Counted from the stretch's first letter, positions 7,401 through 25,067 are shown. The stretch: 32,000 nt of DNA from Geotalea uraniireducens Rf4 (GCF_000016745.1 NC_009483.1:1800001-1832000), one strand, 5' to 3'. Program-made: numbers and translations. Notes: generated by a model not told the origin, from the letters alone.

Positions 7401-7402
7401 AG

Positions 7403-10986: not shown

Positions 10987-11009
10987 TGGAATAATCCATT
11001 TCAACACGC

Positions 11010-13005: not shown

Positions 13006-13035
13006 TTGACAAAATTGGTAGATAATATATATACT
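13006..13035 (+). promoter_or_regulatory. Sigma70-type promoter in the AT-rich spacer
   Basis: TTGACA (13006-13011), an 18-nt spacer, then TATACT (13030-13035). An alternative -10 is TATATA with a 16-nt spacer. Confidence 0.4.
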
Positions 13036-13040
13036 ACACT

Positions 13041-13165
13041 CTATAGACTTAGTATACTTTTAGAATCACTAATCAATATTGCTGGGCTGACCAGAAAAAC
13101 TGGAGGCCAGGTCTGATTGTTGGAGATATTCATTTCTCCGATGGTTGATCTGGCCTCTTTTTTTT
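13041..13165 (+). ncRNA. Candidate ~125-nt small transcript or attenuating leader, defined by the promoter at 13006 and the terminator at 13103-13165
   Basis: There is no plausible ORF or SD between the predicted +1 and the terminator. The unit lies 215 nt upstream of the first rhodanese gene. No known riboswitch consensus was recognised by eye. Confidence 0.3.
13103..13165 (+). terminator. Rho-independent terminator (long stem with an internal hairpin, followed by T8)
   Basis: GAGGCCAGGTC (13103-13113) pairs with GATCTGGCCTC (13147-13157), 11 bp including one G-U. An inner stem is formed by GGAGA (13122-13126) and TCTCC (13135-13139). TTTTTTTT follows at 13158-13165. Confidence 0.65.
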
Positions 13166-13380
13166 ATTCGGTTATCGGCAACAAGAGAGAAGAAAGTTAA
13201 ACACCGATGTGATGTTGCGGTAGAAGCTGACCAGGTGACTTGGAGGCTGATCTGAAATTATTTTAAAAAGGAGAAACAGCCTGAAATAGTTGAACGTAAA
13301 TGGGGAGCCAGGCACCCTGACTGTCTAGCAGAATAGACATTGTCAAAGTCAAAATAAATAGTTCGAAAGGAGAAACAAAT

Positions 13381-14550
13381 ATGAAACGCAGAGACATTTT
13401 TACAGTTCTGGGATTGTTACTTGTGGCTTTAACTACTGGGTCTTTGCTCTCGGGGTGCAACAGTTCATCGGCAACTGCTGCAACTGCCCCAACAGCGACC
13501 GCGCAATTGAGCGACTATTTCAAGTCAACGGATTGGGTGGCGCTGCATGCCAGCGATCAAAACTTCGTCATCGTTGATACCCGTCCGGCAGCCAAATACA
13601 ATGCCGGTCATATTCCCGGCGCAATCAACATACCGCGCGACCAGTTCTATTTCCCCAGGAAGGTCATCGACGCCGCAACCGGGTCCTACAAAGTCGATTC
13701 CAATGGGCAACCGGTGCAGATCGCATATGACATACCGACCCCGGCCGAATTGATCGACATCCTTACCAGGAACGGCATCACCCCCGATACGACCGTAGTG
13801 GCCTACGACAACGACACATCCTCCTATGGCGGCCGCGTGCCGTGGGTCCTGAAGAGCTACGGTCACGCCAAGGCCTACGTGATCGATGGCGGTATCGACA
13901 AGTGGAAGGATGTCGACGGCCGGACGCTCAGCACGACCGCCGTGATTCCGACTCCCAGCGCCAAACCGTATAAAATTACCAGCTACCAGAACCATCGTGT
14001 CACCAAAAGCGACCTTGCTGCGGTAATCGACACCGCCAACGGCAACGTCACCAAGGCCGGTTATGTGATCTCCGATGTCAGGACGCCCAGTGAATATACG
14101 GGGTTCGTAACCACGGTCACATCCGGCACTGCTTCCACGGGCGCCTGGACGCAAAACAGCACCCCCTTAGTTTACAGTACAAACCAGGGTGCACGTCCGG
14201 GACATATCCCCTATGCAAAGTTCAGCGATTATGAATCCGCCGTTTATACCGACTACATCAACCCGGCTACCGGCCAGCCGGTTGCTAGCACGCTTCAGCC
14301 GGGCAGAAATGTAAAAGTGCTCAAGAGCGCAGCAGAAATACAGGCACATTTTACAAGCCTGGGAATTACACCTGATAAAATCGTTTACAACCACTGCGAA
14401 GGCGGCTTCCGCTCCGGGGTCTACACGCTGATCCTGCTTGGCCTCGGCTATCCCAACGTCTACAACTACGACGGGTCATGGAACGAGTGGTCCATCCAAG
14501 GTGCGGCTTATCCGGTTGTGACCGGCGACGGCCGCGTCAGCGGACCATAA
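13381..14550 (+). CDS. Exported tandem-rhodanese sulfurtransferase, predicted lipoprotein
   Basis: 389 aa with SD AAAGGAG. Signal peptide with lipobox LLSG|C. The N-terminal rhodanese domain is inactive (VIVDTRPAAKYNAGHIPGAINIP...VVAYDND). The C-terminal domain is catalytic, with the loop HCEGGFRSG followed by YDGSWNEW. Confidence 0.9.
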   Translation: MKRRDIFTVLGLLLVALTTGSLLSGCNSSSATAATAPTATAQLSDYFKSTDWVALHASDQNFVIVDTRPAAKYNAGHIPGAINIPRDQFYFPRKVIDAATGSYKVDSNGQPVQIAYDIPTPAELIDILTRNGITPDTTVVAYDNDTSSYGGRVPWVLKSYGHAKAYVIDGGIDKWKDVDGRTLSTTAVIPTPSAKPYKITSYQNHRVTKSDLAAVIDTANGNVTKAGYVISDVRTPSEYTGFVTTVTSGTASTGAWTQNSTPLVYSTNQGARPGHIPYAKFSDYESAVYTDYINPATGQPVASTLQPGRNVKVLKSAAEIQAHFTSLGITPDKIVYNHCEGGFRSGVYTLILLGLGYPNVYNYDGSWNEWSIQGAAYPVVTGDGRVSGP

Positions 14551-14567
14551 GCCCAAAATAATAACAT

Positions 14568-14601
14568 GACGGGAGGGGCGATTGTTGTGCCGCCCCTCCC
14601 G
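14568..14601 (+). terminator. GC-rich intercistronic hairpin (possible terminator or RNA-stability element, no U-tract)
   Basis: ACGGGAGGGGCG (14568-14579) pairs perfectly with CGCCCCTCCCGT (14590-14601) around a 10-nt loop, 18 nt after the stop codon. Confidence 0.45.
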
Positions 14602-14806
14602 TAGTAAGTGAGTTTCAATCGTCATGCAGAAGTCAATGCTCTTTGAAAACTATTTATAAATACGATAGGTGTAATCTCTTTTAACGATTATTCCGATTTG
14701 ACTTTCAGTAAGTGAGTTTGTTACGGTGTCGCTTTTGATTTCGGCAAGTTGGCACTGAACATTGTTCCCCTTTGCGGGACTTATTTTACTGAAAGGAGCA
14801 GAATCC

Positions 14807-15772
14807 ATGAAAAGAGGAATCGTAATATCTTTCGTGGCGCTCATGGCGCTGGCAATAACGGTTTTGGCGGGGTGCGGCAGCAGTGTGACCGAGAAGACAC
14901 CGGCAGCTCCGGTAGCAAAAGCGTACAGTGACCCTACCATGGCTACAGACGCGGCAACCCTCAAAGCATCGCTCGGCAAAGCCGGGACTGTCATTATCGA
15001 TGCCAGGTCGGCTTCGGCATTTAGCGCAGGCCATATACCTGGAGCGATCAATGCCGTCTGGCAGTCCTTCGCTACGGTAGGAACCGGAGTTCCGGGAGAT
15101 GCAAACTGGGGAGTTTTGAAAACAGCTGCCGAAATCGGGATCGCACTTGGCAACCTGGGTATTGATGCATCTACGGAGGTTATCGTCTATGCAGATGCTC
15201 CCGGAGGCTGGGGAGAGGATGGCCGTATACTCTGGATGCTGCGCATGGCCGGCGTAACCAAGTCCAAGCTGCTCAATGGCGGATTGAATGGGTGGAAGGC
15301 GGCCGGCTACGGCCTCACCACGGCGGCAACGCCGGCGCCCGCACCGACAACATTGTCCATTGCATCATTTACAGGCGATTATGTCGTTGAAAAGGCCTGG
15401 ATTCTCGCCAACATGGCCGGAAGTGACGTCAAGATCATTGACGCCCGAGACCCGGAGGAGTTTGCAGGTGCTGTCAAGTATGGTGAAAAGCGTGGAGGTC
15501 ACTTGCCGGGCGCTATAAACATGCCTTTCAATACAGCCCTCTATACCAACAATCCAGCCAATCCAGGAATCATCAAGAGTCAGGATGAATTGGAGGCGCT
15601 CTTCACGGCTGCCGGAATCAAGAAGACGGATACCATTGTAAGCTACTGCACCAAGGGTATCCGTTCCGGCCTGATGACGATGATTCTGCGTATGGCAGGC
15701 TACAGCAAGGCGGTCAACTATGACGCGTCATTTTATGAATGGGCCGGCGACGCAACGCTCCCGGTTCAATAA
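14807..15772 (+). CDS. Exported tandem-rhodanese sulfurtransferase, predicted lipoprotein (paralog 2)
   Basis: The track ORF starts at 14762. The ATG at 14807 has GAAAGGAG upstream and yields MKRGIVISFVALMALAITVLAG|C, a classical lipobox. The N-domain is VIIDARSASAFSAGHIPGAIN...VIVYADAPGGWGEDG. The C-domain catalytic loop is YCTKGIRSG. Confidence 0.9.
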   Translation: MKRGIVISFVALMALAITVLAGCGSSVTEKTPAAPVAKAYSDPTMATDAATLKASLGKAGTVIIDARSASAFSAGHIPGAINAVWQSFATVGTGVPGDANWGVLKTAAEIGIALGNLGIDASTEVIVYADAPGGWGEDGRILWMLRMAGVTKSKLLNGGLNGWKAAGYGLTTAATPAPAPTTLSIASFTGDYVVEKAWILANMAGSDVKIIDARDPEEFAGAVKYGEKRGGHLPGAINMPFNTALYTNNPANPGIIKSQDELEALFTAAGIKKTDTIVSYCTKGIRSGLMTMILRMAGYSKAVNYDASFYEWAGDATLPVQ

Positions 15773-15813
15773 CAGATCATATTTACCAGGTTAATCAGAT
15801 GTATTGCCGTAAA

Positions 15814-15838
15814 GAGGGCGCCAAATATTGGCGCCCTC
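15814..15838 (+). terminator. GC-rich intercistronic hairpin (no U-tract)
   Basis: GAGGGCGCCAA (15814-15824) and TTGGCGCCCTC (15828-15838) form a perfect palindrome between the rhodanese-2 stop and the outer-membrane protein start. Confidence 0.4.
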
Positions 15839-15863
15839 CTTACTTCACCTTGAGGGGATTCTT

Positions 15864-16703
15864 ATGAAAAAACTTGTTCAATCATCAATTGTGGCCATTC
15901 TGTTTGTGACGGCATCCGCCACTGCCAGCCTGGCCGGCGCCTGGACCGCCAAACAGCATGCCTTCTACGAAAAGCTGGCCTTCAACTACTACTATTCCCA
16001 CGAGACCTTCGATTCGTCGGGCAACCGCAATGGGACGCCCAATAACGGGAAATTCACCGATTACGACATCTGCAATTACTTCGAGTATGGGCTGTTCGAC
16101 AACCTGACCGTGATCAACTCGCTGGCCTACAAGTGGCTGGAGAACGACAATAACTTGGCCCGCACCAAGGGTTACGGCCTGGGAGACGTGGACCTCGGGT
16201 TGCGCTACAAACTGCTGGACAGCGAGAAGATCGGCATCGTTGCCACGCAACTGCTCGTCAAGATTCCGGGGACATATGATAAAAAGGACCCGTTGCCGCT
16301 CGGCAACGGCCAGTTTGACACGGAAATCCGGCTGCTCTACGGCCGTTCGCTCTATCCGCTGATCCCCGGTTACGGCAACGTGGAGTTCGGCTACCGCTGG
16401 CGGGCCGAGGGCCCTTCCGACGAGATCCGCTATCTTGTTGAATTCGGCGTGGACGTTACCAGGGATTTTTACACCCGCGCCAAGCTGGACGGGACCCTCA
16501 GCGTGGATAACGGTAAAAAACTGGACGGCAGCGGCAACCCCACGGCTACCAACAACTTCGACCTCGGCAAGCTGGACCTGACCGTTGGTTACAAGGTTAC
16601 TCCGGCATGGGGGGTGGAGATCAGCTATCGGCCAGACATCTACGGACAAAATATCGCGGCCGGCGCGAATTATTCCCTTGCGCTCTATTTCAAGACACCA
16701 TAG
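15864..16703 (+). CDS. Outer-membrane beta-barrel channel (MetA/phenol-degradation-like transporter family)
   Basis: ATG at 15864. The signal peptide is MKKLVQSSIVAILFVTASATASLA|G. Alternating amphipathic strands are present (GLGDVDLGLRYKL, NVEFGYRW, LDLTVGYKV, GVEISYRP, and the C-terminal YSLALYFKTP). The size (about 255 aa mature) and motifs fit small substrate-channel barrels. Confidence 0.7.
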   Translation: MKKLVQSSIVAILFVTASATASLAGAWTAKQHAFYEKLAFNYYYSHETFDSSGNRNGTPNNGKFTDYDICNYFEYGLFDNLTVINSLAYKWLENDNNLARTKGYGLGDVDLGLRYKLLDSEKIGIVATQLLVKIPGTYDKKDPLPLGNGQFDTEIRLLYGRSLYPLIPGYGNVEFGYRWRAEGPSDEIRYLVEFGVDVTRDFYTRAKLDGTLSVDNGKKLDGSGNPTATNNFDLGKLDLTVGYKVTPAWGVEISYRPDIYGQNIAAGANYSLALYFKTP

Positions 16704-16724
16704 TTCTGCATTGTCAGATTCAAA

Positions 16725-16840
16725 GGCAAATCCCCCTCAATCCCCCTTTTGTAAAGGGGGAAGCATTTAGATCCCCCCTTTATGAAAAGGGGAAGCATTT
16801 AGATCCCCCCTTTATGAAAGGGGGGGAGGGGGGATTTGCC
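16725..16840. repeat. Array of three tandem 31-32-bp hairpin repeats enclosed by a 14-15-bp inverted repeat (REP/MITE-like element)
   Basis: The units are TCCCCCTTTTGTAAAGGGGGAAGCATTTAGA (16741-), TCCCCCCTTTATGAAAAGGGGAAGCATTTAGA (16772-) and TCCCCCCTTTATGAAAGGGGGGG (16804-). Each contains a C5-6TTT...AAAG4-7 stem. The flanks GGCAAATCCCCCTC (16725-16738) and GAGGGGGGATTTGCC (16826-16840) are reverse complements. Spurious translations give the PPF(V/M)KGG-type peptides often seen for such repeats. Confidence 0.85.
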
Positions 16841-16877
16841 GTTAAGGTCGCTAATCAAGAAAAAACAGGACATTACC

Positions 16878-18707
16878 ATGAGCATTATCACTAACAACCA
16901 TCTTCGCCCCGGTCTGCAAGAACAGATTGCCGCAACAAAATCGGGTTGCACCAATTGCGGCGAATGCGTCCGGGAGTGTGCCTTCCTCAAGAAATATGGC
17001 ACACCCAAATCTATTGCAGACAGCTTCGATGCAATTGATCCAAAATCCCTTGCTCGCTCCTTCGAGTGCAGCCTGTGCGGGCTCTGCTCGGTGGTCTGTC
17101 CGGAACAGCTCGATCTGGACGGACTGTTTCTGGAGATGCGGCGCGAGGCGGTGGACCGGGGCTTCGGGGACTACCCGGAGCATTCACCCCTGCTGACCTA
17201 CGAACGGCTGGGAACATCCCGCCGTTTCAGCCTGTACCGGTTGCCCCAAGGGTGCACGACGATCTTCTTCCCCGGCTGCTCCCTGTCCGGCACCCGCCCC
17301 GATGGCGTCAACAGGGTTTTCGCCGAGCTTCAGAAGACTGATCCAACCGTGGGTATCGTCTTTGACTGCTGTTTGAAGCCGTCCCATAGCCTGGGGCGCG
17401 AGCAGTACACTGGCGCCATGTTCGAGGAGATGAACAACTGGCTTGTGCAGCAGGGGGTGAAAGAGGTGCTGGTGGCATGCCCCAACTGCCAGGTGATGTT
17501 CACCTCGCTAGGCCAGGGGCTGAAGGTGAGAACCGTCTGGGAGTCCCTCGCCGAGTCCGGACTGCAGCCGGAAGGAGTGTCCGGTACGGTGACGGTTCAT
17601 GACCCCTGTGTTATCCGCGATGCACAACCGGTGCATCAGGCCGTGCGTACCCTGCTCAATCGCCAGGGACTGATGGTGGAGGAGATGCCCCATTCCGGCA
17701 GAACCACCGTCTGCTGCGGTCAGGGGGGGGCGGTCAACCTGCTGAACCCGCAACTGGCCGCTTCATGGGGAGAACTGCGCAAAAGAGAGGCGGCCGGCAG
17801 GAGAATCATCACCTACTGCGCCGGCTGTGTCCAGGCCCTGGGGGGGCACACGCCGACCAATCACCTGGTGGATATCCTGTTCGCCCCGAATCAGACCCTG
17901 GCCGGAAAGAAAAAGGGCGCCGGAGCCCCCTTTACCTATCTGAACCGGCTTCGACTCAAAAGAGCCTTTAAACGCAAGGAGGGATATGCAGTGACACGAG
18001 AACGAACATTTGTACCGGAACAGGGGCAGCCAAAGAAACGCTCCTGGAAACCGCTGATCTTTCTGGTCTTGCTGGTGGCAGCCGTCGCCGGCGTGCACCT
18101 GTCGGGAGCGGCCCAGTATCTTCAGCAGGAAAAATTGCAGGCATTGATTGCCTCGTACGGAGTCCTGGCCCCGGCTATTTACATCCTGCTTTATGCCCTG
18201 GCGCCGGTATTGTTCCTGCCCGGCCTGCCGATCACCATTGTGGGCGGTATTCTGTTCGGCCCGGTCTGGGGCGTGGTTTATACCATTACCGGCGCGACCA
18301 TCGGCGCCTCTCTGGCATTTCTGGTTGCGCGCTACGTGGCCCGCGACTGGGTGGCAGCCAAGTTGACCGGGCCCACGTGGGAAAAGCTCGACAGCGAAGT
18401 GGCCCAGCACGGCTGGAAGGTGGTGGCCTTCACACGACTGATTCCGGCCTTCCCCTTCAATCTGTTGAACTACGCCTTCGGACTGACCAAGGTCCCGTTT
18501 GTTCATTATATGGTTGCCACCTTTGTCTTCATGCTGCCTGCCTGCATCGCCTTCATCGTTTTCTCCAGCTCATTGCTGGGGCTGATCAAAGGCAAGGTTT
18601 CCCCGACGGCTCTGCTGGGCATCGGCCTGATTGTGCTGGTGTCGCTGATTCCGGTGGTCTACCGGCGCTTCAAGGGGCGTCAGGCGGCCGAGGCGGAAGC
18701 TGAGTGA
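16878..18707 (+). CDS. Fusion protein: 2x[4Fe-4S] ferredoxin motif + two CCG (HdrD/GlpC/LutA-like) cysteine-rich domains, fused to a C-terminal TVP38/TMEM64 (DedA-superfamily) membrane domain
   Basis: Start taken at the ATG at 16878; the track's TTG at 16836 is possible, and the SD is weak for both. Fe-S motifs: CTNCGECVREC and CSLCGLCSVVCP. CCG units: FFPGCS...FDCCLKP...ACPNC and HDPCV...VCCGQGG...YCAGC. From about residue 395 there are several TM helices with the TVP38/SNARE-associated signature LFLPGLPITIVGGILFGPVWGVVYTITGATIGASLAFLVARY...FTRLIPAFPFNLLNYAFGLT. Confidence 0.85.
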   Translation: MSIITNNHLRPGLQEQIAATKSGCTNCGECVRECAFLKKYGTPKSIADSFDAIDPKSLARSFECSLCGLCSVVCPEQLDLDGLFLEMRREAVDRGFGDYPEHSPLLTYERLGTSRRFSLYRLPQGCTTIFFPGCSLSGTRPDGVNRVFAELQKTDPTVGIVFDCCLKPSHSLGREQYTGAMFEEMNNWLVQQGVKEVLVACPNCQVMFTSLGQGLKVRTVWESLAESGLQPEGVSGTVTVHDPCVIRDAQPVHQAVRTLLNRQGLMVEEMPHSGRTTVCCGQGGAVNLLNPQLAASWGELRKREAAGRRIITYCAGCVQALGGHTPTNHLVDILFAPNQTLAGKKKGAGAPFTYLNRLRLKRAFKRKEGYAVTRERTFVPEQGQPKKRSWKPLIFLVLLVAAVAGVHLSGAAQYLQQEKLQALIASYGVLAPAIYILLYALAPVLFLPGLPITIVGGILFGPVWGVVYTITGATIGASLAFLVARYVARDWVAAKLTGPTWEKLDSEVAQHGWKVVAFTRLIPAFPFNLLNYAFGLTKVPFVHYMVATFVFMLPACIAFIVFSSSLLGLIKGKVSPTALLGIGLIVLVSLIPVVYRRFKGRQAAEAEAE

Positions 18708-19462
18708 TAGCGGCGCCCCCCGACATAGCTCTGATCATACCGGCCAGGAACGAGGAACTCTCCCTGCCGGGAGTGCTCGGGAATGTGCCGACTGAGATCA
18801 CGCGGGTTGTGGTGGTTGACAACGGATCGACAGACGCGACGGCACAGGTTGCCGCTGAATATGGCGCCCATGTCGTCACCGAACCGGTGGCCGGTTACGG
18901 CAGGGCCTGCCTGGCCGGATTGGCCTTTCTGCGGAACGATCCGCCGGACATCGTGGCTTTTGTCGATGCCGACGGCAGCGATGAGCTGTCGCGCCTGCCC
19001 GACCTGATCGCCCCGGTTTCCGTCGGAGAGCAGGAACTTGTGCTGGGGCGGCGGATTCCGGTTGTCACGGCGGCGCTTAGTTTTCAGCAGCGCTTCGGGC
19101 ACCTGCTGGCCACCGTGTTGATACGTCTGTTTTGGAGATACCGCTACAGAGACCTTGGTCCGATGCGGGTCATCAGTTGGATGGCGCTGAATCGGTTGAA
19201 TATGGCTGACCAAGCTTTCGGCTGGACGGTGGAAATGCAGGTCAGGGCACTCAAACATGGGCTGCGGATACGGGAGATTGACGTCCCTTATCATCAGCGC
19301 ACTGCCGGAAAGTCAAAGATCAGTCGGACGATCACCGGTACGGTCAAGGCCGGGAGCACTATTCTGTGGGTTATCGGCCGTGAATTGGTGCACGGGTTAC
19401 AGCATAAAAGACAAGAGGCAGCGGCAGCAGACACGGTTATTACTGCCGAGCAGGCACAATAA
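18704..19462 (+). CDS. Small GT-A fold family-2 glycosyltransferase, DPM1/GtrB/ArnC-like (candidate polyprenyl-phosphate sugar synthase)
   Basis: 252 aa with a GTG start overlapping the upstream stop (GTGA). Motifs: ALIIPARNEE, VVVVDNGSTDAT, GYGRACLAG, FVDADGSD, DLGPMRVISW and EIDVPYHQRTAGKSKIS. No TM segments are evident. Confidence 0.8.
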   Translation: MIAAPPDIALIIPARNEELSLPGVLGNVPTEITRVVVVDNGSTDATAQVAAEYGAHVVTEPVAGYGRACLAGLAFLRNDPPDIVAFVDADGSDELSRLPDLIAPVSVGEQELVLGRRIPVVTAALSFQQRFGHLLATVLIRLFWRYRYRDLGPMRVISWMALNRLNMADQAFGWTVEMQVRALKHGLRIREIDVPYHQRTAGKSKISRTITGTVKAGSTILWVIGRELVHGLQHKRQEAAAADTVITAEQAQ

Positions 19463-19476
19463 AGGAGAATAACGCC

Positions 19477-20367
19477 ATGCAGATTATTGCAAAGTTTATA
19501 CAGCAGGCAAAACGAGCCGGTTTACATCATGTAATCATGGTTTTATTGATGGTAGTAACGGTAATCGTTTCCTGTTTCTCGGCTGCCACGGCGGCCGATC
19601 TGAGACTGATCGATGCAGCTGCGTTGAAGGGTAATTCAGCAAAATGGGTCATACTTGATGCCCGTCCCAAGGCCGACTGGGAAACCGGCCACATTCCGGG
19701 AGCCATCCAGTTTTCATGGGACAATTATACCCGCACCGACGCCAAGGGGGTAAAGTACAGCTCTTTTCCACCCCAGGAACTGGCCGTAGCACTGGCCGGA
19801 CTGGGGATTGACGAAAAGACCCCGGTAGTGGTGTACGGGGACGCCGACAAGAGCTGGGGCGGCGAAGGGTATAATATCTGGTTGCTTTCCTGGCTTGGTC
19901 ACAAGGGACCCATCCGGCTGCTGAATGGCGGCATCCAGGCCTGGCGCAACCAGAATTTGCCTCTGGCCAAGGGGCCGGAAAAGCCTGCCGCCAAAAAGGC
20001 CCGTTACCAGGTGGATCTCAAGCCCCCGTACATCGTCTCCACGGAAGAGGTGCAGAAGGGAAAAGGTTCTTTTGTGCTGGTTGATGTCCGCTCGACCTTT
20101 GAATGGATCAAAGGCAGGATACCCGGCGCCATTCATATACCCTGGGAGGATTTTTACACCGGCAAGGATCACCACCCGCTTCCTCCGGCGGAACTGAAAA
20201 AGCTGCTTGCCAAGCATGGCGTGGATACCTCCAAACCGGTGGTTTATTACTGCCTGGGCGGGGTGCGCTCTGCCTACGCCTGGACGGCCCACCAGTTGGC
20301 AGGGCTGCCTGAAGCCCGCAACTACAAGGGAAGCTGGGCAGCCTGGGAGAAGCGGGCGGGGCAGTAA
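19477..20367 (+). CDS. Exported tandem-rhodanese sulfurtransferase (paralog 3; signal anchor or lipoprotein)
   Basis: 296 aa with SD AAGGAG. Hydrophobic N-terminus VIMVLLMVVTVIVS|C (lipobox-like IVSC), followed by FSAATA. The N-domain is VILDARPKADWETGHIPGAIQF...VVVYGDADKSWGGEG. The C-domain catalytic loop is YCLGGVRSA, followed by YKGSWAAWE. Confidence 0.9.
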   Translation: MQIIAKFIQQAKRAGLHHVIMVLLMVVTVIVSCFSAATAADLRLIDAAALKGNSAKWVILDARPKADWETGHIPGAIQFSWDNYTRTDAKGVKYSSFPPQELAVALAGLGIDEKTPVVVYGDADKSWGGEGYNIWLLSWLGHKGPIRLLNGGIQAWRNQNLPLAKGPEKPAAKKARYQVDLKPPYIVSTEEVQKGKGSFVLVDVRSTFEWIKGRIPGAIHIPWEDFYTGKDHHPLPPAELKKLLAKHGVDTSKPVVYYCLGGVRSAYAWTAHQLAGLPEARNYKGSWAAWEKRAGQ

Positions 20368-20385
20368 TTTGAATGTATGATTTTC

Positions 20386-20464
20386 GTAGGGGCGATCCCT
20401 TGTGGTCGCCCGATTTTGACGTCGGTGGTGCTGCCAGCAGGGCGGGCACAAGACCCGCCCCTAC
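20386..20464. repeat. REP-like composite palindromic element
   Basis: The outer arms GTAGGGGCG (20386-20394) and CGCCCCTAC (20456-20464) enclose two internal hairpins, GGCGATC-CCTTGT-GGTCGCC and GGGCGGG-CACAAGA-CCCGCCC. This GTAGGGGCGA...GGCACAAGACC..CCCCTAC sequence type is a familiar extragenic repeat in several bacterial phyla. Confidence 0.55.
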
Positions 20465-20476
20465 AGGAACGCTGAA

Positions 20477-20992
20477 ATGAGTTTTTTAATATGTCGAATC
20501 GCACACTGCCTGATACTGTCTGCCCTGCTGCTTGCTCTGTCAGTCATGGCATGTCATGCAGTCGAATCCAGGTCAAAAACGCCAACGTCCAGCGCCAAAA
20601 AGAAGCTGCTGCTGTTCGCCAAGAATCCTGCCACCTGGGCCATTGTCAAGGGGGGCGCCAGCGGCAAGATGGTCTACCGCGAGTCATCCGGCGCCTTCAG
20701 CCTGAGTGCTGCCGGCCTCCGCCCCCGTTCGGCCTACGCCATGATAAGGTACGCCGATGCTCCTCCAAAAGCCGAGATTCTCGCCCGGGGAGAGAGTGAT
20801 GTTCGCGGCAATCTGGAACTGAACGGAGTCTGGCGAAACTGGACCAGAAAGTTCTGGCTTGTGTCGGGCGAGGATGTGGTGGGCTTGCCCGGTGAAGCCG
20901 GTTCGCTCCGCGCCTGGCGGCCGGAACGCTATCTTTTCGAGGAAAAACAGATCGGCATACCCTGCCAATGCCCCGAACCAGAGGAACCTTAA
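20477..20992 (+). CDS. Exported hypothetical protein (signal peptide, possible lipobox VMA|C), no recognised family
   Basis: 171 aa. The N-terminus is CLILSALLLALSVMAC. The mature part is rich in beta-type alternation, and the C-terminus has CQCPEPEEP. Its stop overlaps the start of the radical SAM gene (TAATG), and the coding-like composition continues through that junction. Confidence 0.6.
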   Translation: MSFLICRIAHCLILSALLLALSVMACHAVESRSKTPTSSAKKKLLLFAKNPATWAIVKGGASGKMVYRESSGAFSLSAAGLRPRSAYAMIRYADAPPKAEILARGESDVRGNLELNGVWRNWTRKFWLVSGEDVVGLPGEAGSLRAWRPERYLFEEKQIGIPCQCPEPEEP

Positions 20993-22017
20993 TGACAGCA
21001 ATGTTCAAAAAGAAAGTCGAGGCGGTGGATGACCGCTTCACCACATTCCATAGACTGGAAACGCTCCAGGTGAATCTGGGCGATCTCTGCAACCTGAGTT
21101 GCGCCCACTGTCATCATCATGCCTCGCCGCAAGGCGCCCGGATCATGGGCCGGGACGTCATGGAAAAGATCACTGCGTTCCTGGCGCGGCATCCCGGTCT
21201 GACGCTGGACATAACCGGCGGCTGCCCGGAAATGAACCCGGACTTCCGGTACTTCGTCGAGGCATCGGCAGGACACGCCGCACGTCGCATCATCCGCAGC
21301 AATCTGGCCATTGCCCTTGAACCCGGCATGGAATGGCTGCCTGACTTTTATCGCGAACAGGCGCTGGTGGTGATGGCGTCGCTTCCCTGCTACGAAGCGG
21401 AGAACGTGGAGAAACAGAGGGGAGGCGGGGTCTTCATGCAAAGTATCGAGGTGTTGCGGCGCCTCAATCGGCAGGGCTATGGCAGCGAACTGGAACTCCA
21501 CCTCGTCCATAACCCGGGCAACGGCTCCGTGTCCGGATCACGTGATATGCTGGAGCAGCATTACCGTACGGAACTTCTACAGCGTTTTGGTGTCAGCTTC
21601 AGTCGGCTCCACTGCATGAACAATACCCCCATCGGACGTTTTCGGGACAACCTGGAGCGCAGGGGAACCTATCAGCGCTATATCGAGCATCTGGCGGAAA
21701 AATTCAATCCGCTGGCCACAGAGCAAATCATGTGCCGAACGCTGGTCAGTGTCGGCTGGGATGGGGTGCTATACAACTGCGACTTCAATCTGGCTGCCGC
21801 ATTGCCGTTGCAACGGGCGGATGGCTCGCTCGTGACCATCGACCATGCCGACGAGGCGATTGTCCCCGGCAGCGGAATCCGGATGGCTGCGCACTGTTTC
21901 AGTTGCACCGCCGGCGAGGGTTCGGGGTGCGGCGGGTCATTGGCTGCATCCGGCAACAAGGTATATGGATCAGCGAACAGCAATGATCAGGGCGTGAGCG
22001 CATGCTGTCAGCAATAA
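20992..22017 (+). CDS. arsS: ArsS-family radical SAM/Cys-rich domain protein (TIGR04167, rSAM/selenodomain family), Cys form
   Basis: The ATG at 20992 (GAGGAA upstream) is preferred over the track start at 20968. Radical SAM motif LQVNLGDLCNLSCAHCHH. Family-typical blocks: LDITGGCPEMNPDFRYFV, SLPCYEAENVEKQRGGGVF, YGSELELHLVHNP, MCRTLVSVGWDGVLYNCDFN. The C-terminal motif HCFSCTAGEGSGCGG has TGC (21928-21930) at the position that is Sec in some members. Confidence 0.8.
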   Translation: MTAMFKKKVEAVDDRFTTFHRLETLQVNLGDLCNLSCAHCHHHASPQGARIMGRDVMEKITAFLARHPGLTLDITGGCPEMNPDFRYFVEASAGHAARRIIRSNLAIALEPGMEWLPDFYREQALVVMASLPCYEAENVEKQRGGGVFMQSIEVLRRLNRQGYGSELELHLVHNPGNGSVSGSRDMLEQHYRTELLQRFGVSFSRLHCMNNTPIGRFRDNLERRGTYQRYIEHLAEKFNPLATEQIMCRTLVSVGWDGVLYNCDFNLAAALPLQRADGSLVTIDHADEAIVPGSGIRMAAHCFSCTAGEGSGCGGSLAASGNKVYGSANSNDQGVSACCQQ

Positions 22018-23480
22018 TACCGGTCCTGACCGCTATCCATTTTGCCGCGCTGCTCGGCCTCTGCCTGTACGGGGTGCACCGGCTCTGGCTGATTTATTGC
22101 CTGTACATGCCAAAAGGAAGCGAGAGGTCGACCCCGGCCCCTTTTGCCGCACCCGAAGAGTTCCCATCGGTCACTGTACAACTGCCGCTTTACAACGAGC
22201 GCTTTGTGGCGGAACGCCTGCTGGATGCCGCAGCCGGTCTTGACTGGCCCCGTGAGCGGCTCGAAATCCAGGTGCTGGACGATTCGGACGACGACACCTG
22301 CCGGCTGGTGGACCAGCGGGCTGCCTGGTGGCGGAAGCAGGGTGTCGCCATCACCGTGGTGAGAAGAACCAGCCGCGACGGCTACAAGGCAGGGGCGCTT
22401 GCCAACGGCCTTGCAACGGCACATGGTGAATACATAGCCGTCTTTGATGCCGACTTCATCCCGCCGCCCGATTTTCTGCATGCCACCATGCCATGGTTCA
22501 GAAATCAGGACGTCGGCATGGTCCAGACCCGCTGGAGCTTCTGCAATGCCGACCACTCCTGGTTCACCGGCATCCAGTCCCTCCTGCTCGGTCCGCATTT
22601 CAGCATCGAACACCGTGTGCGCTACCGGCAGGGGTTGTTCTTCAACTTCAACGGCACCGCCGGTGTCTGGCGCAGGAGCGCCATTGAGTCTGCCGGCGGC
22701 TGGCAGTCCGACACGGTCACCGAAGACCTGGATCTGAGCTACCGTGCACAGTTGGCCGGATGGCGCTTTGTCTATCGCGAAGAGTGCCAGGTGCCGTCCG
22801 AGCTGCCGGTGACCATGGCTGCACTGCGCAGCCAGCAGCAGCGCTGGGCCAAGGGTTCCATCCAGACCGCCCGCAAGATTCTGCCGCGGTTGTTGCAGGA
22901 GCGCTTGCCGCCGGCCGTAAAGATCGAGGCAATGGCCCATCTGATGGCCAATATCTACTGGCTTCTGGGCATGATCGTCATGCTGACCCTCTATCCGGCA
23001 GTTACCTGGCGGGTCGGCATCGGCCTGCACCAGGTCCTGCGCATCGATCTGCCGCTCTTCCTGGCCACCAGCGGGGCGATCATGAGCTACTTCCTGCTCT
23101 ATTCCATCCGCAGCGGATCGAAGAGCCTGCTGCGGCATGTTGTGCTGCTGCCCGCCCTGACCATCGGGTTGGCCCCCAGCATCTCCCTTTCAGTGCTGAA
23201 GGGGTTGTTTCGCCCGGGCGGTGAGTTCGAGCGGACACCCAAATTCGGTGTGCGGGGACGTGAACGGATTCCGGGGCTGGCCTTCCTCTATCATCAGAAA
23301 AACCTTCCCTACATCTTCATGAACGGCGTGCTGTTCCTCTACTGCCTGCTGCCGGTAATCTTCGCCTGGCAGCGGGAAACCTGGTTCGCCGTGCCCCTGT
23401 TCCTGCTTTTTCCGTTCGGTTTTGCATTGGTACTGGCAAAAGATATCAGGGAATCGTTATTTTCGGCAAACTTGAGATAA
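22002..23480 (+). CDS. Integral-membrane family-2 glycosyltransferase with D,D,D,QxxRW signature (cellulose-synthase/glycolipid-synthase-like)
   Basis: 492 aa with an N-terminal TM. Motifs: VQLPLYNE, QVLDDSDD, AVFDADF, TEDLDLSYR and LRSQQQRWAKGS. Several C-terminal TM helices are present. A 16-nt overlap with the radical SAM gene. Confidence 0.85.
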   Translation: MLSAIIPVLTAIHFAALLGLCLYGVHRLWLIYCLYMPKGSERSTPAPFAAPEEFPSVTVQLPLYNERFVAERLLDAAAGLDWPRERLEIQVLDDSDDDTCRLVDQRAAWWRKQGVAITVVRRTSRDGYKAGALANGLATAHGEYIAVFDADFIPPPDFLHATMPWFRNQDVGMVQTRWSFCNADHSWFTGIQSLLLGPHFSIEHRVRYRQGLFFNFNGTAGVWRRSAIESAGGWQSDTVTEDLDLSYRAQLAGWRFVYREECQVPSELPVTMAALRSQQQRWAKGSIQTARKILPRLLQERLPPAVKIEAMAHLMANIYWLLGMIVMLTLYPAVTWRVGIGLHQVLRIDLPLFLATSGAIMSYFLLYSIRSGSKSLLRHVVLLPALTIGLAPSISLSVLKGLFRPGGEFERTPKFGVRGRERIPGLAFLYHQKNLPYIFMNGVLFLYCLLPVIFAWQRETWFAVPLFLLFPFGFALVLAKDIRESLFSANLR

Positions 23481-23534
23481 CAGACATGATAACCGGTTCT
23501 AAGTGCAATGCAGTTGCAACCTTGAGGGGAAATA

Positions 23535-25067
23535 TTACTGACCGGGTTCTGCAGTTGGCTGCCGAGCACCGCTGAGAGCCCTGCTGAGAAGGTATGCCGT
23601 TAGCGGCGCCAGGAAGACCGCTGCCGTCACCTGCGGATTCTCGGTCCACTGCCCCAGGATGAAATAGGGGATCTGAACCTGGTACGTCAGGAAGACCGCC
23701 CAACAGAGTACCAGTCCGGCCGGACCTGCGCAGAACGGCAGAAATACCGCCAGGCAGAGGGCGTACCATGGTTGCAGGGTCGGGGTAAGCAGCAATAGCG
23801 CCATGGCGATGGCATAACAGGCTTCCATCGCCTGACGTAATCTGTTGACCGGTGATAGTCCGTGATTGATGCTGCCGGCCAAACGGAGAATGATTCCGAC
23901 GGCAACCAGCAGAAAACAGGATGACAACAGCAGGCGGGCAATCGTTCCCGAGCCGGTCATGGTACGAAGCGTGTTGAAGGCAAAACCGGCAAATTCCCAA
24001 TTGCGGGCATAGGCATCCAGGCTGGCGGTCATGTTGACCAAGTGCGGCAGGAACGGCAACACGAGTGCTGCCAGAGTCGCGATAAATCCGGCTGCAAAAT
24101 GTCTGCGTCGCTCATTCGGGACCAGCAGAAACAGTACCGGCGTCAACACCAGGGGAAACAGCTTCACCAAGCCGGCGCAGGCCAGCAACGCTCCGGACAA
24201 CAGAAACGGCCACCGCCGCGGAGCCGTCGCAGAAGCGCTCTGCCGATCCATTGCAAGCAGGCAGAAGGAACCTATCAGCATGGCAAGACCTGCTCCGTCC
24301 ACGTGCCCAGACCCGGCGATCTCCAGCACCGGCAGTGGATTCCATGCATAGAGTACAGCCCGCCATGCCGGCATCTCAAGCCGCTTCAACAGCATAACCA
24401 ACAGGGCGCACAGTCCCAGGTCGAGCAGCGCCAGAAAAGCCTTGAGGCCTGTGATGGTTCCACCAGTCGCTGCTCCCCCGGCAAACACCAACTGGGCCGT
24501 TGGTGGGTAAATGGTGACATAATCCGGGTGATTGATCATTGAGTGAACGGCTTTCAGTCCGGGCAGCGGCGTTATGACGGATGGCGAAGCGGCATAGGGA
24601 TTGACTCCCCGCAGCAGGTTACTGCCATCCCACAGGTAGCGGTAGATGTCATCGGACAGTTGCGGCGGACTGAACAGGAACAACAGGCGCAACACGAGCC
24701 CCACAGCAAGGATGACGGCCGGCGACCAAAGGACCTTTGCGCGCTCTCCGCAATAGAGGGCAAGCGTCAACAGCGTCGCCATCAATGCCGTGACGCCAAT
24801 CAGCAGCGGCACCGCCAGGCGTAACTCCGGCTGAACAGCAAGTATGCCACAGGAGGAGATCAGGAAGACAGGAAGTGCTACCGTAACAATATTTCCTGCA
24901 AGAGCCGTAATCGTTAGGTTTTTTTTGGCTGTAGCCATGACCGTCACGTATTTCCTAATCGTATTCAGCAGTTCTTGGCGTCTGTCCGTTACAATCGGTC
25001 TCAGCCAGGCCACCGGTTCATTCAAAGTCTTTCCTGAAACAAACAAAAAGTCAAGAATTACAGTCAA
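23535..25067 (-). CDS. Polytopic GT-C-type membrane glycosyltransferase (DUF2029/GT87/mannosyltransferase-like)
   Basis: 510-aa ORF with more than 10 predicted TM helices. The first periplasmic loop carries SDDIYRYLWDGSNLLRGVNPYA, and further on YPPTAQ and WNPLPVLEIAGSGHVDG. These are typical of polyprenyl-phosphate-sugar-dependent GT-C enzymes. The start is uncertain: TTG at 25067 or ATG at 24938. Confidence 0.7.
   Translation of the reverse strand: MTVILDFLFVSGKTLNEPVAWLRPIVTDRRQELLNTIRKYVTVMATAKKNLTITALAGNIVTVALPVFLISSCGILAVQPELRLAVPLLIGVTALMATLLTLALYCGERAKVLWSPAVILAVGLVLRLLFLFSPPQLSDDIYRYLWDGSNLLRGVNPYAASPSVITPLPGLKAVHSMINHPDYVTIYPPTAQLVFAGGAATGGTITGLKAFLALLDLGLCALLVMLLKRLEMPAWRAVLYAWNPLPVLEIAGSGHVDGAGLAMLIGSFCLLAMDRQSASATAPRRWPFLLSGALLACAGLVKLFPLVLTPVLFLLVPNERRRHFAAGFIATLAALVLPFLPHLVNMTASLDAYARNWEFAGFAFNTLRTMTGSGTIARLLLSSCFLLVAVGIILRLAGSINHGLSPVNRLRQAMEACYAIAMALLLLTPTLQPWYALCLAVFLPFCAGPAGLVLCWAVFLTYQVQIPYFILGQWTENPQVTAAVFLAPLTAYLLSRALSGARQPTAEPGQ

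Follow-up and report, generated by a model that had tools for sequence, protein, structure and literature searches.

What does a radical SAM enzyme of the ArsS family do among glycosyltransferases and exported rhodaneses, and what does such a gene set make? The question is raised by Gura_1559-1568 of Geotalea uraniireducens Rf4, a block spanning positions 13381-24938 of the window, the 32,000-nucleotide stretch of DNA that was analysed (Table 1). From gene content, we infer that the block is a modular unit, found across the Geobacteraceae, for the synthesis and export of a glycan or glycoconjugate of the envelope. About half of its versions, this one included, encode a radical SAM enzyme of the arsenosugar type, so the sugar put on the cell surface may be an unusual one that bears arsenic, sulfur or selenium.

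Extent and conservation of the gene block

All 8 genes listed in an earlier sequence-only reading were found in place and match RefSeq proteins, and its family calls agree with Pfam and NCBIfam profile matches and with RefSeq names. The start codons chosen here reproduce the RefSeq proteins ABQ25755-25765 (Gura_1559-1569) exactly. The boundaries required revision. That reading opened the block at 16878, but the conserved unit begins 3.5 kb further upstream, where genes for two rhodanese lipoproteins, the first at 13381, precede that of a 12-strand outer-membrane channel. The starts of the ArsS gene (20968) and the GT-C gene (25067) were corrected to 20992 and 24938.

The genes overlap or abut, with junctions of -4 nt (FeS/CCG-VTT to GT2a), +14 nt (GT2a to rhd3), +109 nt (rhd3 to p171), -1 nt (p171 to ArsS) and -16 nt (ArsS to GT2b), and the GT-C gene converges on GT2b across 54 nt. 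About 45 related loci share this gene order at 55-90% protein identity, confirming that the adjacency is kept outside this genome. Because the flanks of these loci are unrelated, chance association is excluded. By this arrangement, the block is a single, conserved operon; a literature search on its locus tags gave no match. The promoter-like site ahead of rhd1 is a positional lead only, since the total count of TTGACA/TATACT-type sites is not above shuffle expectation. Upstream of the block, the window also contains part of a NifS gene and a pseudogene of TauE.

The constant core comprises at least one rhodanese lipoprotein, the channel, GT2a, rhd3, p171, a BcsA-like GT2b and a GT87 GT-C enzyme, the gene for the last being present in every related locus at differing distance and orientation. 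Fuller versions add TIGR04282, TIGR04283, two B12-radical SAM genes and a gene for a small methyltransferase. The junction is visible in 22 metagenome loci, of which 12 have ArsS and 10 lack it, and ArsS-free blocks also occur in two isolates, Geobacter sp. AOG2 and FeAm09. The core therefore functions without ArsS, which is not the hub of the system and which, judged by gene order, is an optional insert in a modular Geobacteraceae operon. At two loci (L006 and L009), DsrE, TusA and an encapsulin with cysteine desulfurase adjoin the block, and at another (L001) a TehB-like methyltransferase lies 3.5 kb downstream.

Table 1. Features of the Gura_1559-1568 block, with positions counted in the window
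Feature	Position	Strand	Basis
Promoter-like site TTGACA-18-TATACT	13006..13035	+	AT-rich 470-bp gap upstream of rhd1; 11/12 match
rhd1 (Gura_1559), 389-aa tandem rhodanese lipoprotein	13381..14550	+	Pfam Rhodanese E 1e-29; exact RefSeq match
rhd2 (Gura_1560), 321-aa tandem rhodanese lipoprotein	14807..15772	+	Pfam Rhodanese E 8e-33; exact RefSeq match
Outer-membrane channel (Gura_1561), 279 aa	15864..16703	+	Signal peptide; predicted 12-strand beta barrel
FeS/CCG-VTT fusion (Gura_1562)	16878..18707	+	Pfam Fer4_17, Fer4_8, CCG x2, VTT_dom
GT2a (Gura_1563), 252-aa soluble GT2, Dpm1/AglJ/PpgS type	18704..19462	+	PF00535
rhd3 (Gura_1564), 296-aa exported tandem rhodanese	19477..20367	+	Pfam Rhodanese E 7e-39, two stretches
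p171 (Gura_1565), exported 171-aa protein	20477..20992	+	Signal peptide; predicted Ig-like beta sandwich
Type A ArsS paralog (Gura_1566), 341-aa radical SAM	20992..22017	+	TIGR04167 382 bits; PF12345
GT2b (Gura_1567), 492-aa membrane synthase-type GT2	22002..23480	+	Pfam Glyco_tranf_2_3, Glyco_trans_2_3, Glyco_transf_21
GT-C enzyme (Gura_1568), 467 aa, GT87/DUF2029	23535..24938	-	RefSeq 'glycosyltransferase 87 family protein'

Synthase-export genes and a proposed lipid-carrier branch

The AlphaFold model of the channel (pLDDT 81) has 12 long strands, and among PDB entries it fits the COG4313 channel 4rl8 best (TM 0.71-0.74, E 8e-11). JGI calls the protein XagA-like, and several homologs are named 'protein XagA' there. 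GT2b carries a QQQRW motif and several TM segments; its closest solved relative is BcsA (E 2e-26, residues 35-405), it scores 133 bits against the CelA model, under cutoff, and it is 39% identical to a Pseudoalteromonas gene that adjoins a channel homolog. GT2b is thus a BcsA-like synthase, paired with the channel as in xagA/xagB-like clusters, and not a lipid-carrier glycosyltransferase. The xagABCD genes are required for biofilm polysaccharide (PMC3609779). The GT-C enzyme has about 10 TM segments and an SDDxYRYLWDG motif after TM segment 2 or 3; its orthologs match PF26314 or PF09594, and its own MptB score is 29.6 bits (cutoff 40).

With respect to GT2a, no TM segment was predicted, and the best NCBIfam matches, AglJ (E 1.5e-24), dolichyl-phosphate hexose transferase (E 1.7e-17) and PpgS (E 1.6e-15), all fall under cutoff. 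GT2a is 39-43% identical to GT2s of Rhodococcus, M. abscessus and Pseudoalteromonas that adjoin TIGR04282/DUF2064. In the actinobacterial clusters (GT2 39-40% identical to GT2a) these two genes occur with MTA phosphorylase, an epimerase and GtrA, all three present in Rhodococcus. A Methylobacterium cluster has the order TIGR04282-GT87-rSAM-GT2, its GT2 being 35% identical to GT2a and its GT87 34% identical to the GT-C enzyme. The actinobacterial clusters look like the mycobacterial methylthioxylose (MtxS/MtxT) pathway. GT2a is accordingly MtxS-like by synteny, while scoring under every curated equivalog cutoff; the link is drawn from synteny in other phyla and from what we take to be the Rv0535-Rv0541c gene order. 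The product of MtxS is MTX-P-C50, which MtxT transfers (PMC8780516, PMC12088412). Such clusters offer an independent precedent, not mentioned in the sequence-only reading, for a part of it that stands, namely a SAM-derived, heteroatom-bearing 5-deoxypentose on a polyprenyl-phosphate carrier, transferred by a GT-C enzyme.

We tentatively favor, at somewhat less than even odds, a glycan synthase-export system of the Xag kind, with a pentose branch that runs over polyprenyl phosphate and into which the ArsS paralog feeds here. The same genes could instead form a Xag-type exopolysaccharide or biofilm operon in which ArsS and the FeS/CCG-TVP38 fusion hitch-hike as a module of their own, chemically unlinked to the glycan. 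The xag genes have an established polysaccharide role (PMC3609779), and the channel, GT2b, GT87 and GT2a module is found free of ArsS in roughly half of the Geobacter blocks and in Pseudoalteromonas, where channel, GT2b, GT87, a redox membrane protein and GT2a follow one another directly. We nevertheless consider hitch-hiking unlikely: ArsS shares 1 nt with p171 and 16 nt with GT2b, and two unrelated ArsS lineages have entered the same block at different positions. Additionally, the ArsS-associated TIGR04282 and TIGR04283 are present even in the ArsS-free Pseudoalteromonas cluster, though with scores under cutoffs, and GT2a-type genes of other phyla have genes for MTA phosphorylase or radical SAM enzymes as neighbors.

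ArsS and its redox partners

Gura_1566, identical (100%) to the RefSeq ArsS, exceeds the TIGR04167 cutoff of 300 bits and shows a CNLSCAHC motif, a DUF3641 domain, GSGC313GG and a 25-aa C-terminal tail with a conserved final Cys. The alignment splits ArsS into types A and B. Type A carries the derived substitutions T208C, D255G, Q267L, S312G and S/T314G, at positions that type B and the outgroups have in common. Both types occur together in the same genome in two cases (L010 with L039, L009 with L051), which means that type A cannot be the only housekeeping copy. Of the 9 distinct loci found via ArsS, 8 have type A ArsS inside the block; at the ninth (L012) it adjoins rhd3, the rest of the block being missing. 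A third lineage, from Geobacter sp. SVR (377 bits), is 43-46% identical to types A and B and occupies a cassette of its own at another point of the block, together with TIGR04169, named as arsenosugar-biosynthesis-associated.

The fusion protein Gura_1562 comprises a cytoplasmic part with 2x[4Fe-4S] and two CCG (HdrD-like) stretches, covered by a match to NF045663 (231 bits), and a TVP38-type membrane domain that is 36-42% identical to cyanobacterial TVP38 proteins flanking arsM/arsS. The fusion was found in 13/13 ArsS-bearing blocks with upstream sequence visible and is absent in some ArsS-free blocks. Geobacter type B clusters have the order FAD-reductase, VTT, ArsS, DUF3047, TIGR04283, TIGR04282, and a Pseudanabaena plasmid has TVP38, a MerA-like disulfide reductase, arsM, TVP38, arsS; the reductases of these ArsS clusters are 56% identical. 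A MerA-like plus TVP38 pair accompanies ArsS in both settings; the fusion, which is not peculiar to this block, replaces that pair, and the neighborhoods identify ArsS, TVP38 and a disulfide reductase as ancestral partners. A Burkholderia ArsS locus includes MTA phosphorylase and TIGR04283.

These shared partners, the score of Gura_1566 and its 40% identity to arsM-adjacent cyanobacterial ArsS are all consistent with an ordinary arsenosugar pathway, in which a plain ArsS adenosylates dimethylarsenite supplied by an ArsM whose gene lies elsewhere, the adjacent glycosyltransferases complete arsenosugars or arsenosugar lipids of known kinds, and the rhodaneses are bystanders. The TIGR04282, TIGR04283 and methyltransferase genes of fuller blocks fit this pathway, as does the setting, since Geobacter of the G. 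uraniireducens type inhabit arsenic-rich aquifers and carry arrA. We regard it as improbable. The sequence-only reading had noted neither arsM nor ars genes in the window, and indeed tblastn found no ArsM homolog there and the scanned window ORFs included no ars genes. Nor does an ArsM homolog lie within 10 kb of any type A locus; type B loci sometimes have one. The derived substitutions of type A, its coexistence with type B and the roughly half of block versions that lack ArsS also argue against a plain ArsS, and we know of no arsenosugar that needs a GT-C enzyme, an outer-membrane channel or a BcsA-like synthase.

Rhodaneses, p171 and the proposed route

The rhodaneses have lipoboxes LLSGC (rhd1) and VLAGC (rhd2) or a signal peptide with an ATA|AD cleavage site (rhd3), and active-site loops CEGGFRS, CTKGIRS and CLGGVRS, respectively. 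Orthologs of rhd1 (79-87% identity) open the block in many loci, and rhd2 is variably present or duplicated in relatives. The predicted model of p171 (pLDDT 83) has 9 strands and a flexible C-terminal CxCPEPEEP tail, whose CxC is conserved among homologs. A profile search gave no family match, a fold search against the PDB nothing significant (best E 0.02, TM <0.4), and its relatives are 204 close homologs, every one unnamed, and 243 distant clusters, 0 with a Pfam family.

Three exported rhodaneses with intact active sites, in a block where rhodaneses are constant, raise a sulfur or selenium variant: type A ArsS would add the 5'-deoxyadenosyl radical to a persulfide, perselenide or methyl-chalcogenide, yielding a methylthioxylose-like thio- or seleno-pentose, with rhodaneses, channel and TVP38 capturing and importing the chalcogen. 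The precedent of MTX, a thio-pentose, points this way, as do the rhd3-ArsS pair that persists alone in L012, the sulfur-relay genes near the block in L006/L009, the NifS and TauE remnants here and the TehB-like gene past the block in L001. This variant seems distinctly unlikely. No ArsS-family member is known to have S or Se activity. The import step is modelled on a proposal for ExtH/ExtI and DedA with selenite, ExtH and ExtI having been linked to the reduction of selenite and tellurite (PMC5877670). The rhodaneses are weakly ExtH-like, but their scores (49.9 bits for rhd2, up to 94 bits in AOG2) are far under the cutoff of 200, and the channel is a COG4313-like barrel, not an ExtI-type porin. 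Rhodaneses also occur in ArsS-free blocks, so their role is independent of ArsS, and the TIGR04169 gene of the SVR cassette is arsenosugar-associated by name.

For the favored glycan system with a pentose branch, the cytoplasmic ArsS paralog would transfer 5'-deoxyadenosyl from SAM to a reduced substrate that carries the heteroatom. Going by the family, this substrate would be methylated As(III), with S or Se as alternatives, and the HdrD-like domain, anchored by TVP38, might hold it reduced or pass it on. A housekeeping MTA-type phosphorylase or nucleosidase would take off the adenine, the pentose would be activated (via TIGR04282 in versions having that gene), and GT2a could load it on polyprenyl phosphate, as MtxS does with methylthioxylose. 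After flipping, the GT87 enzyme would move the sugar in the periplasm onto the GT2b-made polymer, for export through the channel. Against this scheme, TIGR04282, MTA phosphorylase and a GtrA/ArnEF-type flippase were not found in the window. The sequence-only reading keeps its conserved operon and its lipid-carried sugar; the place of ArsS, the role of GT2b, the extent of the unit and the small flippase need revision. The VTT domain belongs to the TVP38/COG0398 kind, proposed to scramble phospholipids rather than flip polyprenyl phosphate, unlike the COG0586 kind, which flips undecaprenyl phosphate. The rhodaneses and p171 may handle the heteroatom in the periplasm, possibly by sulfur transfer to it or by substrate capture; a direct hand-over between these periplasmic rhodaneses and the cytoplasmic ArsS would require a transport step. 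ArsS-free versions would draw on another pentose donor, for example an MTA-derived one.

Gene content and limits of the block

The eight genes that the sequence-only reading had placed at 16878-25067 were all found in the window, and their start-codon translations match RefSeq. The ArsS product (Gura_1566) shows 100% identity with the protein that RefSeq lists as ArsS for Geotalea (Geobacter) uraniireducens, and nine other translated proteins are exact matches of ABQ25755-25765 (Gura_1559-1569). HMM scans upheld the families assigned to the FeS/CCG-VTT fusion, the soluble glycosyltransferase GT2a, the tandem rhodanese rhd3, ArsS and the membrane synthase-type GT2b. The starts of the ArsS and GT-C genes were corrected, and the conserved unit begins at 13381, upstream of the limit first drawn. 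The reading's observation is confirmed, while its interpretation, ArsS within a polyprenyl-phosphate glycosylation triad with exported rhodaneses, is partly supported. No RNA elements were detected in the window by Rfam (gathering thresholds) or ARAGORN, promoter and terminator scans of the window gave counts not above shuffle expectation, and a literature search by locus tags returned no match.

Features of the window and of the loci retrieved for comparison (L-numbers)
Source	Feature	Position	Detail
Window	NifS-type cysteine desulfurase fragment	11722-12035	C-terminal, ~100 aa; just upstream of block
Window	TauE/SafE sulfite-exporter gene	12138-12912	frameshifted at G-run near 12630; after NifS fragment
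Window	rhd1, rhodanese lipoprotein gene	13381-14550	
Window	GC hairpin	14569-14602	strong; 13-bp stem, no T-run; directly after rhd1
Window	GTAAGTGAGTTT	14604-14615, 14708-14719	exact 12-nt direct repeat in 211-bp rhd1-rhd2 gap
Window	rhd2, rhodanese lipoprotein gene	14807-15772	
Window	outer-membrane protein (channel) gene	15864-16703	279 aa
Window	FeS/CCG-VTT fusion gene		-4 nt to GT2a
Window	GT2a gene		+14 nt to rhd3
Window	rhd3 gene		+109 nt to p171
Window	p171 gene		-1 nt to ArsS
Window	ArsS gene	start 20992	-16 nt to GT2b
Window	GT2b gene		convergent with GT-C, 54 nt between
Window	GT-C gene	start 24938	
Window	fes431 gene	25307-26602	431 aa; 4Fe-4S dicluster and CNCCGCCC motif; divergent from GT-C gene
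L024	ArsM-like gene, type B locus	5624-6613	
L035	ArsM-like gene, type B locus	4653-5627	
L042	ArsM-like gene, type B locus	4988-5953	
L047	ArsM-like gene, type B locus	2775-3689	
L090	molybdopterin-dependent oxidoreductase gene	1176-2462	
L091	molybdopterin-dependent oxidoreductase gene	1853-3273	
L092	molybdopterin-dependent oxidoreductase gene	8905-10008	
L092	MTX-like cluster	6962-8277	M. abscessus plasmid
L094	ArsS cassette of Geobacter sp. SVR	3774-8989	
L104	B12-binding radical SAM tandem pair	9442-12278	
L119	B12-binding radical SAM tandem pair	10642-13481	
L108	B12-binding radical SAM tandem pair	10692-13531	
L009	B12-binding radical SAM tandem pair	13166-16025	
L095	altered genes of Geobacter sp. 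FeAm09	6572-7288, 11066-12453	fusion gene reduced to VTT domain; GT-C gene as two ORFs
L006	putative DsrE-like, TusA-like, encapsulin and desulfurase genes	13313-17385	directly beside block
L009	putative DsrE-like, TusA-like, encapsulin and desulfurase genes	18393-20600	directly beside block

The NifS fragment and the TauE/SafE gene look like pseudogenes or sequencing errors. The hairpin and the GTAAGTGAGTTT repeats after rhd1 may form a processing or regulatory site. The 4Fe-4S protein fes431 was considered as a member of the block and ruled out, being missing from all related loci; its close homologs exist elsewhere, linked to the block in no other locus.

Among the exported parts, rhd3 is a tandem rhodanese by HMM scan. 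The model of the outer-membrane protein is a 12-strand barrel (pLDDT 81), nearest in structure to the COG4313 channel 4rl8 (TM 0.71-0.74); it also matches FapF-type 12-strand channels, and its homologs are labelled 'XagA' by JGI. The 171-aa protein p171 begins with a signal peptide, continues as an Ig-like beta sandwich and carries a CxCPEPEEP tail that is conserved. Neither p171 nor its distant relatives match Pfam or NCBIfam, and comparison of p171 with PDB folds gave nothing significant.

The adjacency of rhodanese-like lipoprotein genes to an outer-membrane beta barrel gene recalls ExtH/ExtI of Geobacter sulfurreducens (selenite/tellurite; PMC5877670), and the block rhodaneses match the ExtH model weakly. 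Membership of ExtH/ExtI was ruled out, however, because NF040901 scores are 49.9 and 34.9 bits (cutoff 200) and the barrel is of the COG4313/FapF type. Rhodaneses of the block and its relatives together span 35-94 bits against the same cutoff, the channel is a 12-strand COG4313-like barrel and, unlike ExtH/ExtI, the block contains no cytochromes.

ArsS lineages and their redox partners

Window ArsS scores 382.4 bits against TIGR04167 (cutoff 300), the family after which RefSeq names it as well, and also matches DUF3641. Its motif cysteines C33, C37 and C40 lie in CNLSCAHC, PF12345 is matched at 154 bits, and C313 in GSGCGG aligns with a Cys or Sec of a second lineage, type B; a PDB search found no solved relative. 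Types A and B were delimited among the closest 120 ArsS homologs. Type A proteins, including that of the window, have ~341 aa and a C-terminal tail, and all copies lie in the block or adjoin rhd3; type B proteins have ~318 aa and take in the Geobacter selenoprotein form. The two types coexist within single MAGs, and each is ~40% identical to arsM-adjacent cyanobacterial ArsS. Type A departs, through derived substitutions, from residues common to type B and the outgroups (T208C, D255G, Q267L, S312G and S/T314G). A contig scan by patterns derived from the ArsS alignment was too specific, returning only Desulfuromonadia, and the broad view of the family rests on plasmid records.

Type B loci follow the order FAD-dependent MerA-like reductase, VTT, ArsS, DUF3047, TIGR04283 and TIGR04282. 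In four of them an ArsM-like gene, whose product matches Pseudanabaena ArsM at 28-29% identity along the full length, precedes the reductase-VTT-ArsS set, which points to type B as the canonical arsenosugar cluster. Across the loci examined, ArsM-like genes were found solely in these four and in the cyanobacterial plasmid. The stated absence of arsM from the window holds: no ArsM homolog was found there or up to 10 kb from any of the type A loci, and over this range window ArsS lacks the link to arsM that marks the characterised system of cyanobacteria.

That system, the Synechocystis ArsS/ArsM arsenosugar pathway (Xue et al. 2019, as cited in bioRxiv 10.1101/2022.09.23.509062), shares several features with the window. 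The window enzyme falls into the radical SAM family of cyanobacterial ArsS with a score above the curated cutoff, has the CxxxCxxC motif and DUF3641 architecture, and is ~40% identical to an ArsS encoded beside arsM in a cyanobacterium; in both settings ArsS is partnered by a TVP38 membrane protein and by a reductase of the disulfide type. An ordinary arsenosugar pathway served by a distant arsM would account for these likenesses, but we consider it unlikely. The window differs in that arsM is missing from the neighbourhood and in that an FeS/CCG module fused to TVP38 takes the place of the free-standing MerA-like flavoprotein. Its ArsS has substitutions specific to the lineage as well as a C-terminal tail, lies within a glycan synthase-export operon (GT-C, channel, rhodaneses), and can be absent from the block. 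A variant of the pathway that uses sulfur or selenium would sit well with the exported rhodaneses, the MTX precedent and the rhd3-ArsS pair kept in one locus (L012); with the ExtH scores well under cutoff on the other side, we regard it as quite improbable.

The Pseudanabaena plasmid has the order TVP38, 'mercuric reductase', arsM, TVP38, arsS. The window VTT domain shares 36-42% identity with the TVP38 proteins of this plasmid, and the Geobacter type B reductase shares 56% with the plasmid reductase; we therefore take the redox-TVP38 partner to be ancestral to ArsS and the FeS/CCG fusion to be an anaerobe's replacement. The window fusion protein comprises Fer4_17/Fer4_8, two CCG stretches and a VTT domain whose relatives RefSeq names 'TVP38/TMEM64 family', that is, COG0398. 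Such a replacement agrees with PMC10127716, where pyridine-nucleotide disulfide oxidoreductases are reported as the commonest fusion partners of DedA proteins in COG0398. As in those fusions, the VTT domain is coupled to a disulfide-reductase-type module; unlike them, the module is 2x[4Fe-4S] plus CCG (HdrD-like) rather than an FAD/NAD(P)H domain, as fits an anaerobe. Undecaprenyl-phosphate flipping has been assigned to COG0586 only (PMC10127716), and the TVP38 assignment of the window's VTT domain, taken from the RefSeq names of its relatives, would place it outside this proven flippase subfamily.

Glycosyltransferases and the putative export pair

GT2a matches PF00535 and, at E 1e-15 to 1e-24 but with scores below their cutoffs, AglJ, dolichyl-phosphate hexose transferase and PpgS. 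GT2b combines Glyco_tranf_2_3 and Glyco_transf_21 and contains QQQRW; its nearest solved relative is BcsA (E 2e-26 across residues 35-405). The GT-C assignment also stands. RefSeq names the window protein a GT87 family protein, its orthologs match PF09594 or PF26314, and with ~10 TM segments and an invariant SDDxYRYLWDG it has the features of GT-C fold transferases, whose first outer loop carries an acidic motif. The window copy alone falls under the model cutoffs (MptB, 29.6 bits versus 40) and had no match in the local Pfam copy, in which one of six GT-C orthologs reached GT87; a profile search of PDB sequences also found no match. Of the proposed glycosylation triad, the GT-C features thus hold, whereas no small GtrA- or ArnEF-type flippase was found in the block, where the TVP38-type VTT domain is the sole candidate.

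GT2a is 39-40% identical to the GT2s of two actinobacterial clusters and 35% identical to a Methylobacterium GT2. The Rhodococcus cluster has the order MTA phosphorylase, epimerase, GT2, DUF2064, GtrA, and that of M. abscessus GT2 then TIGR04282; in Methylobacterium, TIGR04282, a GT87 gene (product 34% identical to window GT-C) and a SPASM radical SAM gene precede GT2. We take the Rhodococcus order to mirror M. tuberculosis Rv0535-Rv0541c. According to PMC8780516 and PMC12088412, MtxS (Rv0539) makes the lipid donor MTX-P-C50 and MtxT (Rv0541c) transfers methylthioxylose (MTX) to lipoarabinomannan (LAM) caps. The block would share the logic of this route, compared here through the actinobacterial clusters: a small soluble GT2 loads a 5-deoxy-5-heteroatom pentose, derived from a nucleoside by-product of SAM, onto polyprenyl phosphate, and a GT-C enzyme then transfers the pentose outside the membrane. 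It differs in that MTA phosphorylase, epimerase and DUF2064 are all missing from the window, the nucleoside would come from a radical SAM enzyme and not from polyamine metabolism, and Geobacter has no LAM. DDMAA, the product of ArsS (bioRxiv 10.64898/2026.04.29.721666), is an arsenic analogue of MTA, which makes an MTX-like route chemically natural. One ArsS locus of Burkholderia holds both MTA phosphorylase and TIGR04283.

Actinobacterial MTX-like clusters with DUF2064 (L089, L090 and L092) lack ArsS. RefSeq nevertheless names the DUF2064 protein of an MTX-like cluster 'TIGR04282 family arsenosugar biosynthesis glycosyltransferase', and because ArsS is missing there the arsenosugar label of TIGR04282/TIGR04283 looks over-specific. 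In three unrelated taxa, genes for molybdopterin-dependent oxidoreductases accompany GT2 and TIGR04282/DUF2064, in Methylobacterium beside a cytochrome b gene. By eye they recall the MsrP/YedY family; if this presumed kinship is right, their role might be the periplasmic repair of a thioether sugar after oxidation, in parallel to the periplasmic rhodaneses.

The other half of the block has a counterpart in Pseudoalteromonas, where seven contiguous genes lack ArsS, rhodanese and p171 alike. They encode a channel (34% identity to the window protein), GT2b (39%), a GT87 enzyme (29%, local), an FAD/NapH-type redox membrane protein (not comparable to the window), GT2a (43%), and TIGR04282-like and TIGR04283-like proteins, both below cutoff; the channel and GT2b homologs are adjacent. 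In Xanthomonas, xagABCD is required for a biofilm polysaccharide (PMC3609779), and xag-related genes have been proposed for iron-oxidiser stalks (PMC4643136). The block has a putative likeness to xagABCD, judged from the name XagA that JGI gives to homologs of its outer-membrane protein and from the Pseudoalteromonas cluster: a XagA-like outer-membrane protein would be paired with a membrane GT2 synthase. Unlike xagABCD, it adds three rhodaneses, p171 and an optional ArsS, and its redox protein is FeS/CCG-TVP38 where Pseudoalteromonas has the FAD/NapH type.

Modularity of the block and a proposed route

Synteny was assessed by tblastn of window proteins against loci fetched via ArsS. The order rhd1-(rhd2)-omp-FeS/CCG/VTT-GT2a-rhd3-p171-ArsS-GT2b-GT-C recurs in Geomesophilobacter sediminis, six Geobacteraceae MAGs and a JGI contig, with protein identities of 55-87% and unrelated flanks, so that the neighbourhood proposed from the window alone is conserved. 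Sampling via p171 instead of ArsS revealed ArsS-free blocks: in the isolates Geobacter sp. AOG2 and FeAm09 and in several long contigs, p171 is followed directly by GT2b. In a metagenome scan, type A ArsS was present in 12 of the 22 loci with a visible junction and missing from the remaining 10. The FeS/CCG-VTT fusion occurs in all ArsS-bearing blocks with visible upstream sequence (13/13) and is missing in a few ArsS-free ones. One locus (L012) keeps only the rhd3-ArsS pair, and the fullest versions (L104, L119) also include a methyltransferase of 196 aa, two B12-radical SAM genes and TIGR04282. Geobacter sp. SVR has a third ArsS lineage (377 bits; 43-46% identical to types A and B), in a cassette of ABC importer, TIGR04169 AhpD-like protein and ArsS between GT2a and rhd3.

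The ArsS-free versions show that the core works without ArsS, as would be expected if a Xag-type operon carried an ArsS module that has no relation to it and merely hitch-hikes. That ArsS entered one operon twice, independently, argues for a functional link instead, and we judge hitch-hiking improbable. The block is a new modular combination of ArsS with TVP38 and reductase, an MTX-like branch and a Xag-like synthase-export pair. Our preferred reading, held tentatively, is that the ArsS paralog supplies a heteroatom-bearing 5-deoxypentose that is carried on polyprenyl phosphate (GT2a, GT87) onto an exported Xag-type polysaccharide.

Building on the observed gene content, modularity and homologies, we propose that the ArsS paralog would make a 5'-deoxyadenosyl-heteroatom nucleoside, with the FeS/CCG domain supplying or maintaining the reduced substrate at the membrane. 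Housekeeping enzymes would strip off adenine, GT2a would load the pentose onto polyprenyl phosphate, the GT87 enzyme would transfer it in the periplasm to the GT2b polymer, and the channel would export that polymer. The rhodaneses and p171 would act on the heteroatom or deliver it; the periplasmic rhodaneses might tune it, for example from oxo- to thio-arsenosugar. The weak points of this mechanism are the absence from the window of a GtrA-type flippase, TIGR04282 and MTA phosphorylase, the scores of GT2a below every equivalog cutoff, and the location of ArsS and the rhodaneses on opposite sides of the inner membrane.

To our knowledge, no enzyme other than ArsS has been characterised that commits arsenic to the arsenosugar route. 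The operon joins a paralog of it to a GT2 and GT-C pair like the MTX machinery and to a synthase-export pair, offering for test a route from nucleoside through pentose-1-phosphate and polyprenyl-phosphate pentose to envelope glycan. If the lipid-carrier reading is true in this full form, which we hold to be less probable than not, it would provide the first example of an arsenosugar, or its thio- or seleno-counterpart, being placed on a polymer of the bacterial surface by way of a lipid carrier, and TIGR04282/TIGR04283 would be general parts of a pathway from SAM nucleosides to lipid-linked pentoses that includes mycobacterial methylthioxylose. Versions with and without ArsS, sometimes within one genus, are ready-made comparisons. 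Geobacter dominates arsenic-mobilising aquifers, and a surface polymer bearing arsenic or a chalcogen would matter for metalloid cycling. Even if the product is ordinary, the modular map corrects over-specific 'arsenosugar' annotations.

Several variable parts of the comparison loci deserve mention. The 196-aa methyltransferase (L002, L010) was ruled out as a hidden ArsM because its similarity is only that of a generic methyltransferase fold (E 0.002 over 51 residues); it has no BLAST similarity to methyltransferases of the actinobacterial clusters. The tandem B12-binding radical SAM pairs adjoin TIGR04282 and weakly resemble PhpK, HpnJ and BchE-like methyltransferases; none occurs in the window, and such a pair could methylate the heteroatom in ArsM's stead. 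In the SVR cassette, the importer's binding protein is PhnS-like (2-aminoethylphosphonate type) and the AhpD-like TIGR04169 protein is an 'arsenosugar-associated peroxidase-like' protein; dimethylarsinate or another organo-oxyanion might be what the importer takes up. The FeAm09 copy, with its reduced fusion gene and split GT-C gene, looks degenerate. In two MAGs (L006, L009) the genes beside the block would encode putative DsrE-like and TusA-like proteins and what, by eye from the N-terminal sequences, we take to be a family 2 encapsulin with cysteine desulfurase cargo; the four together hint at a sulfur-metabolism neighbourhood.
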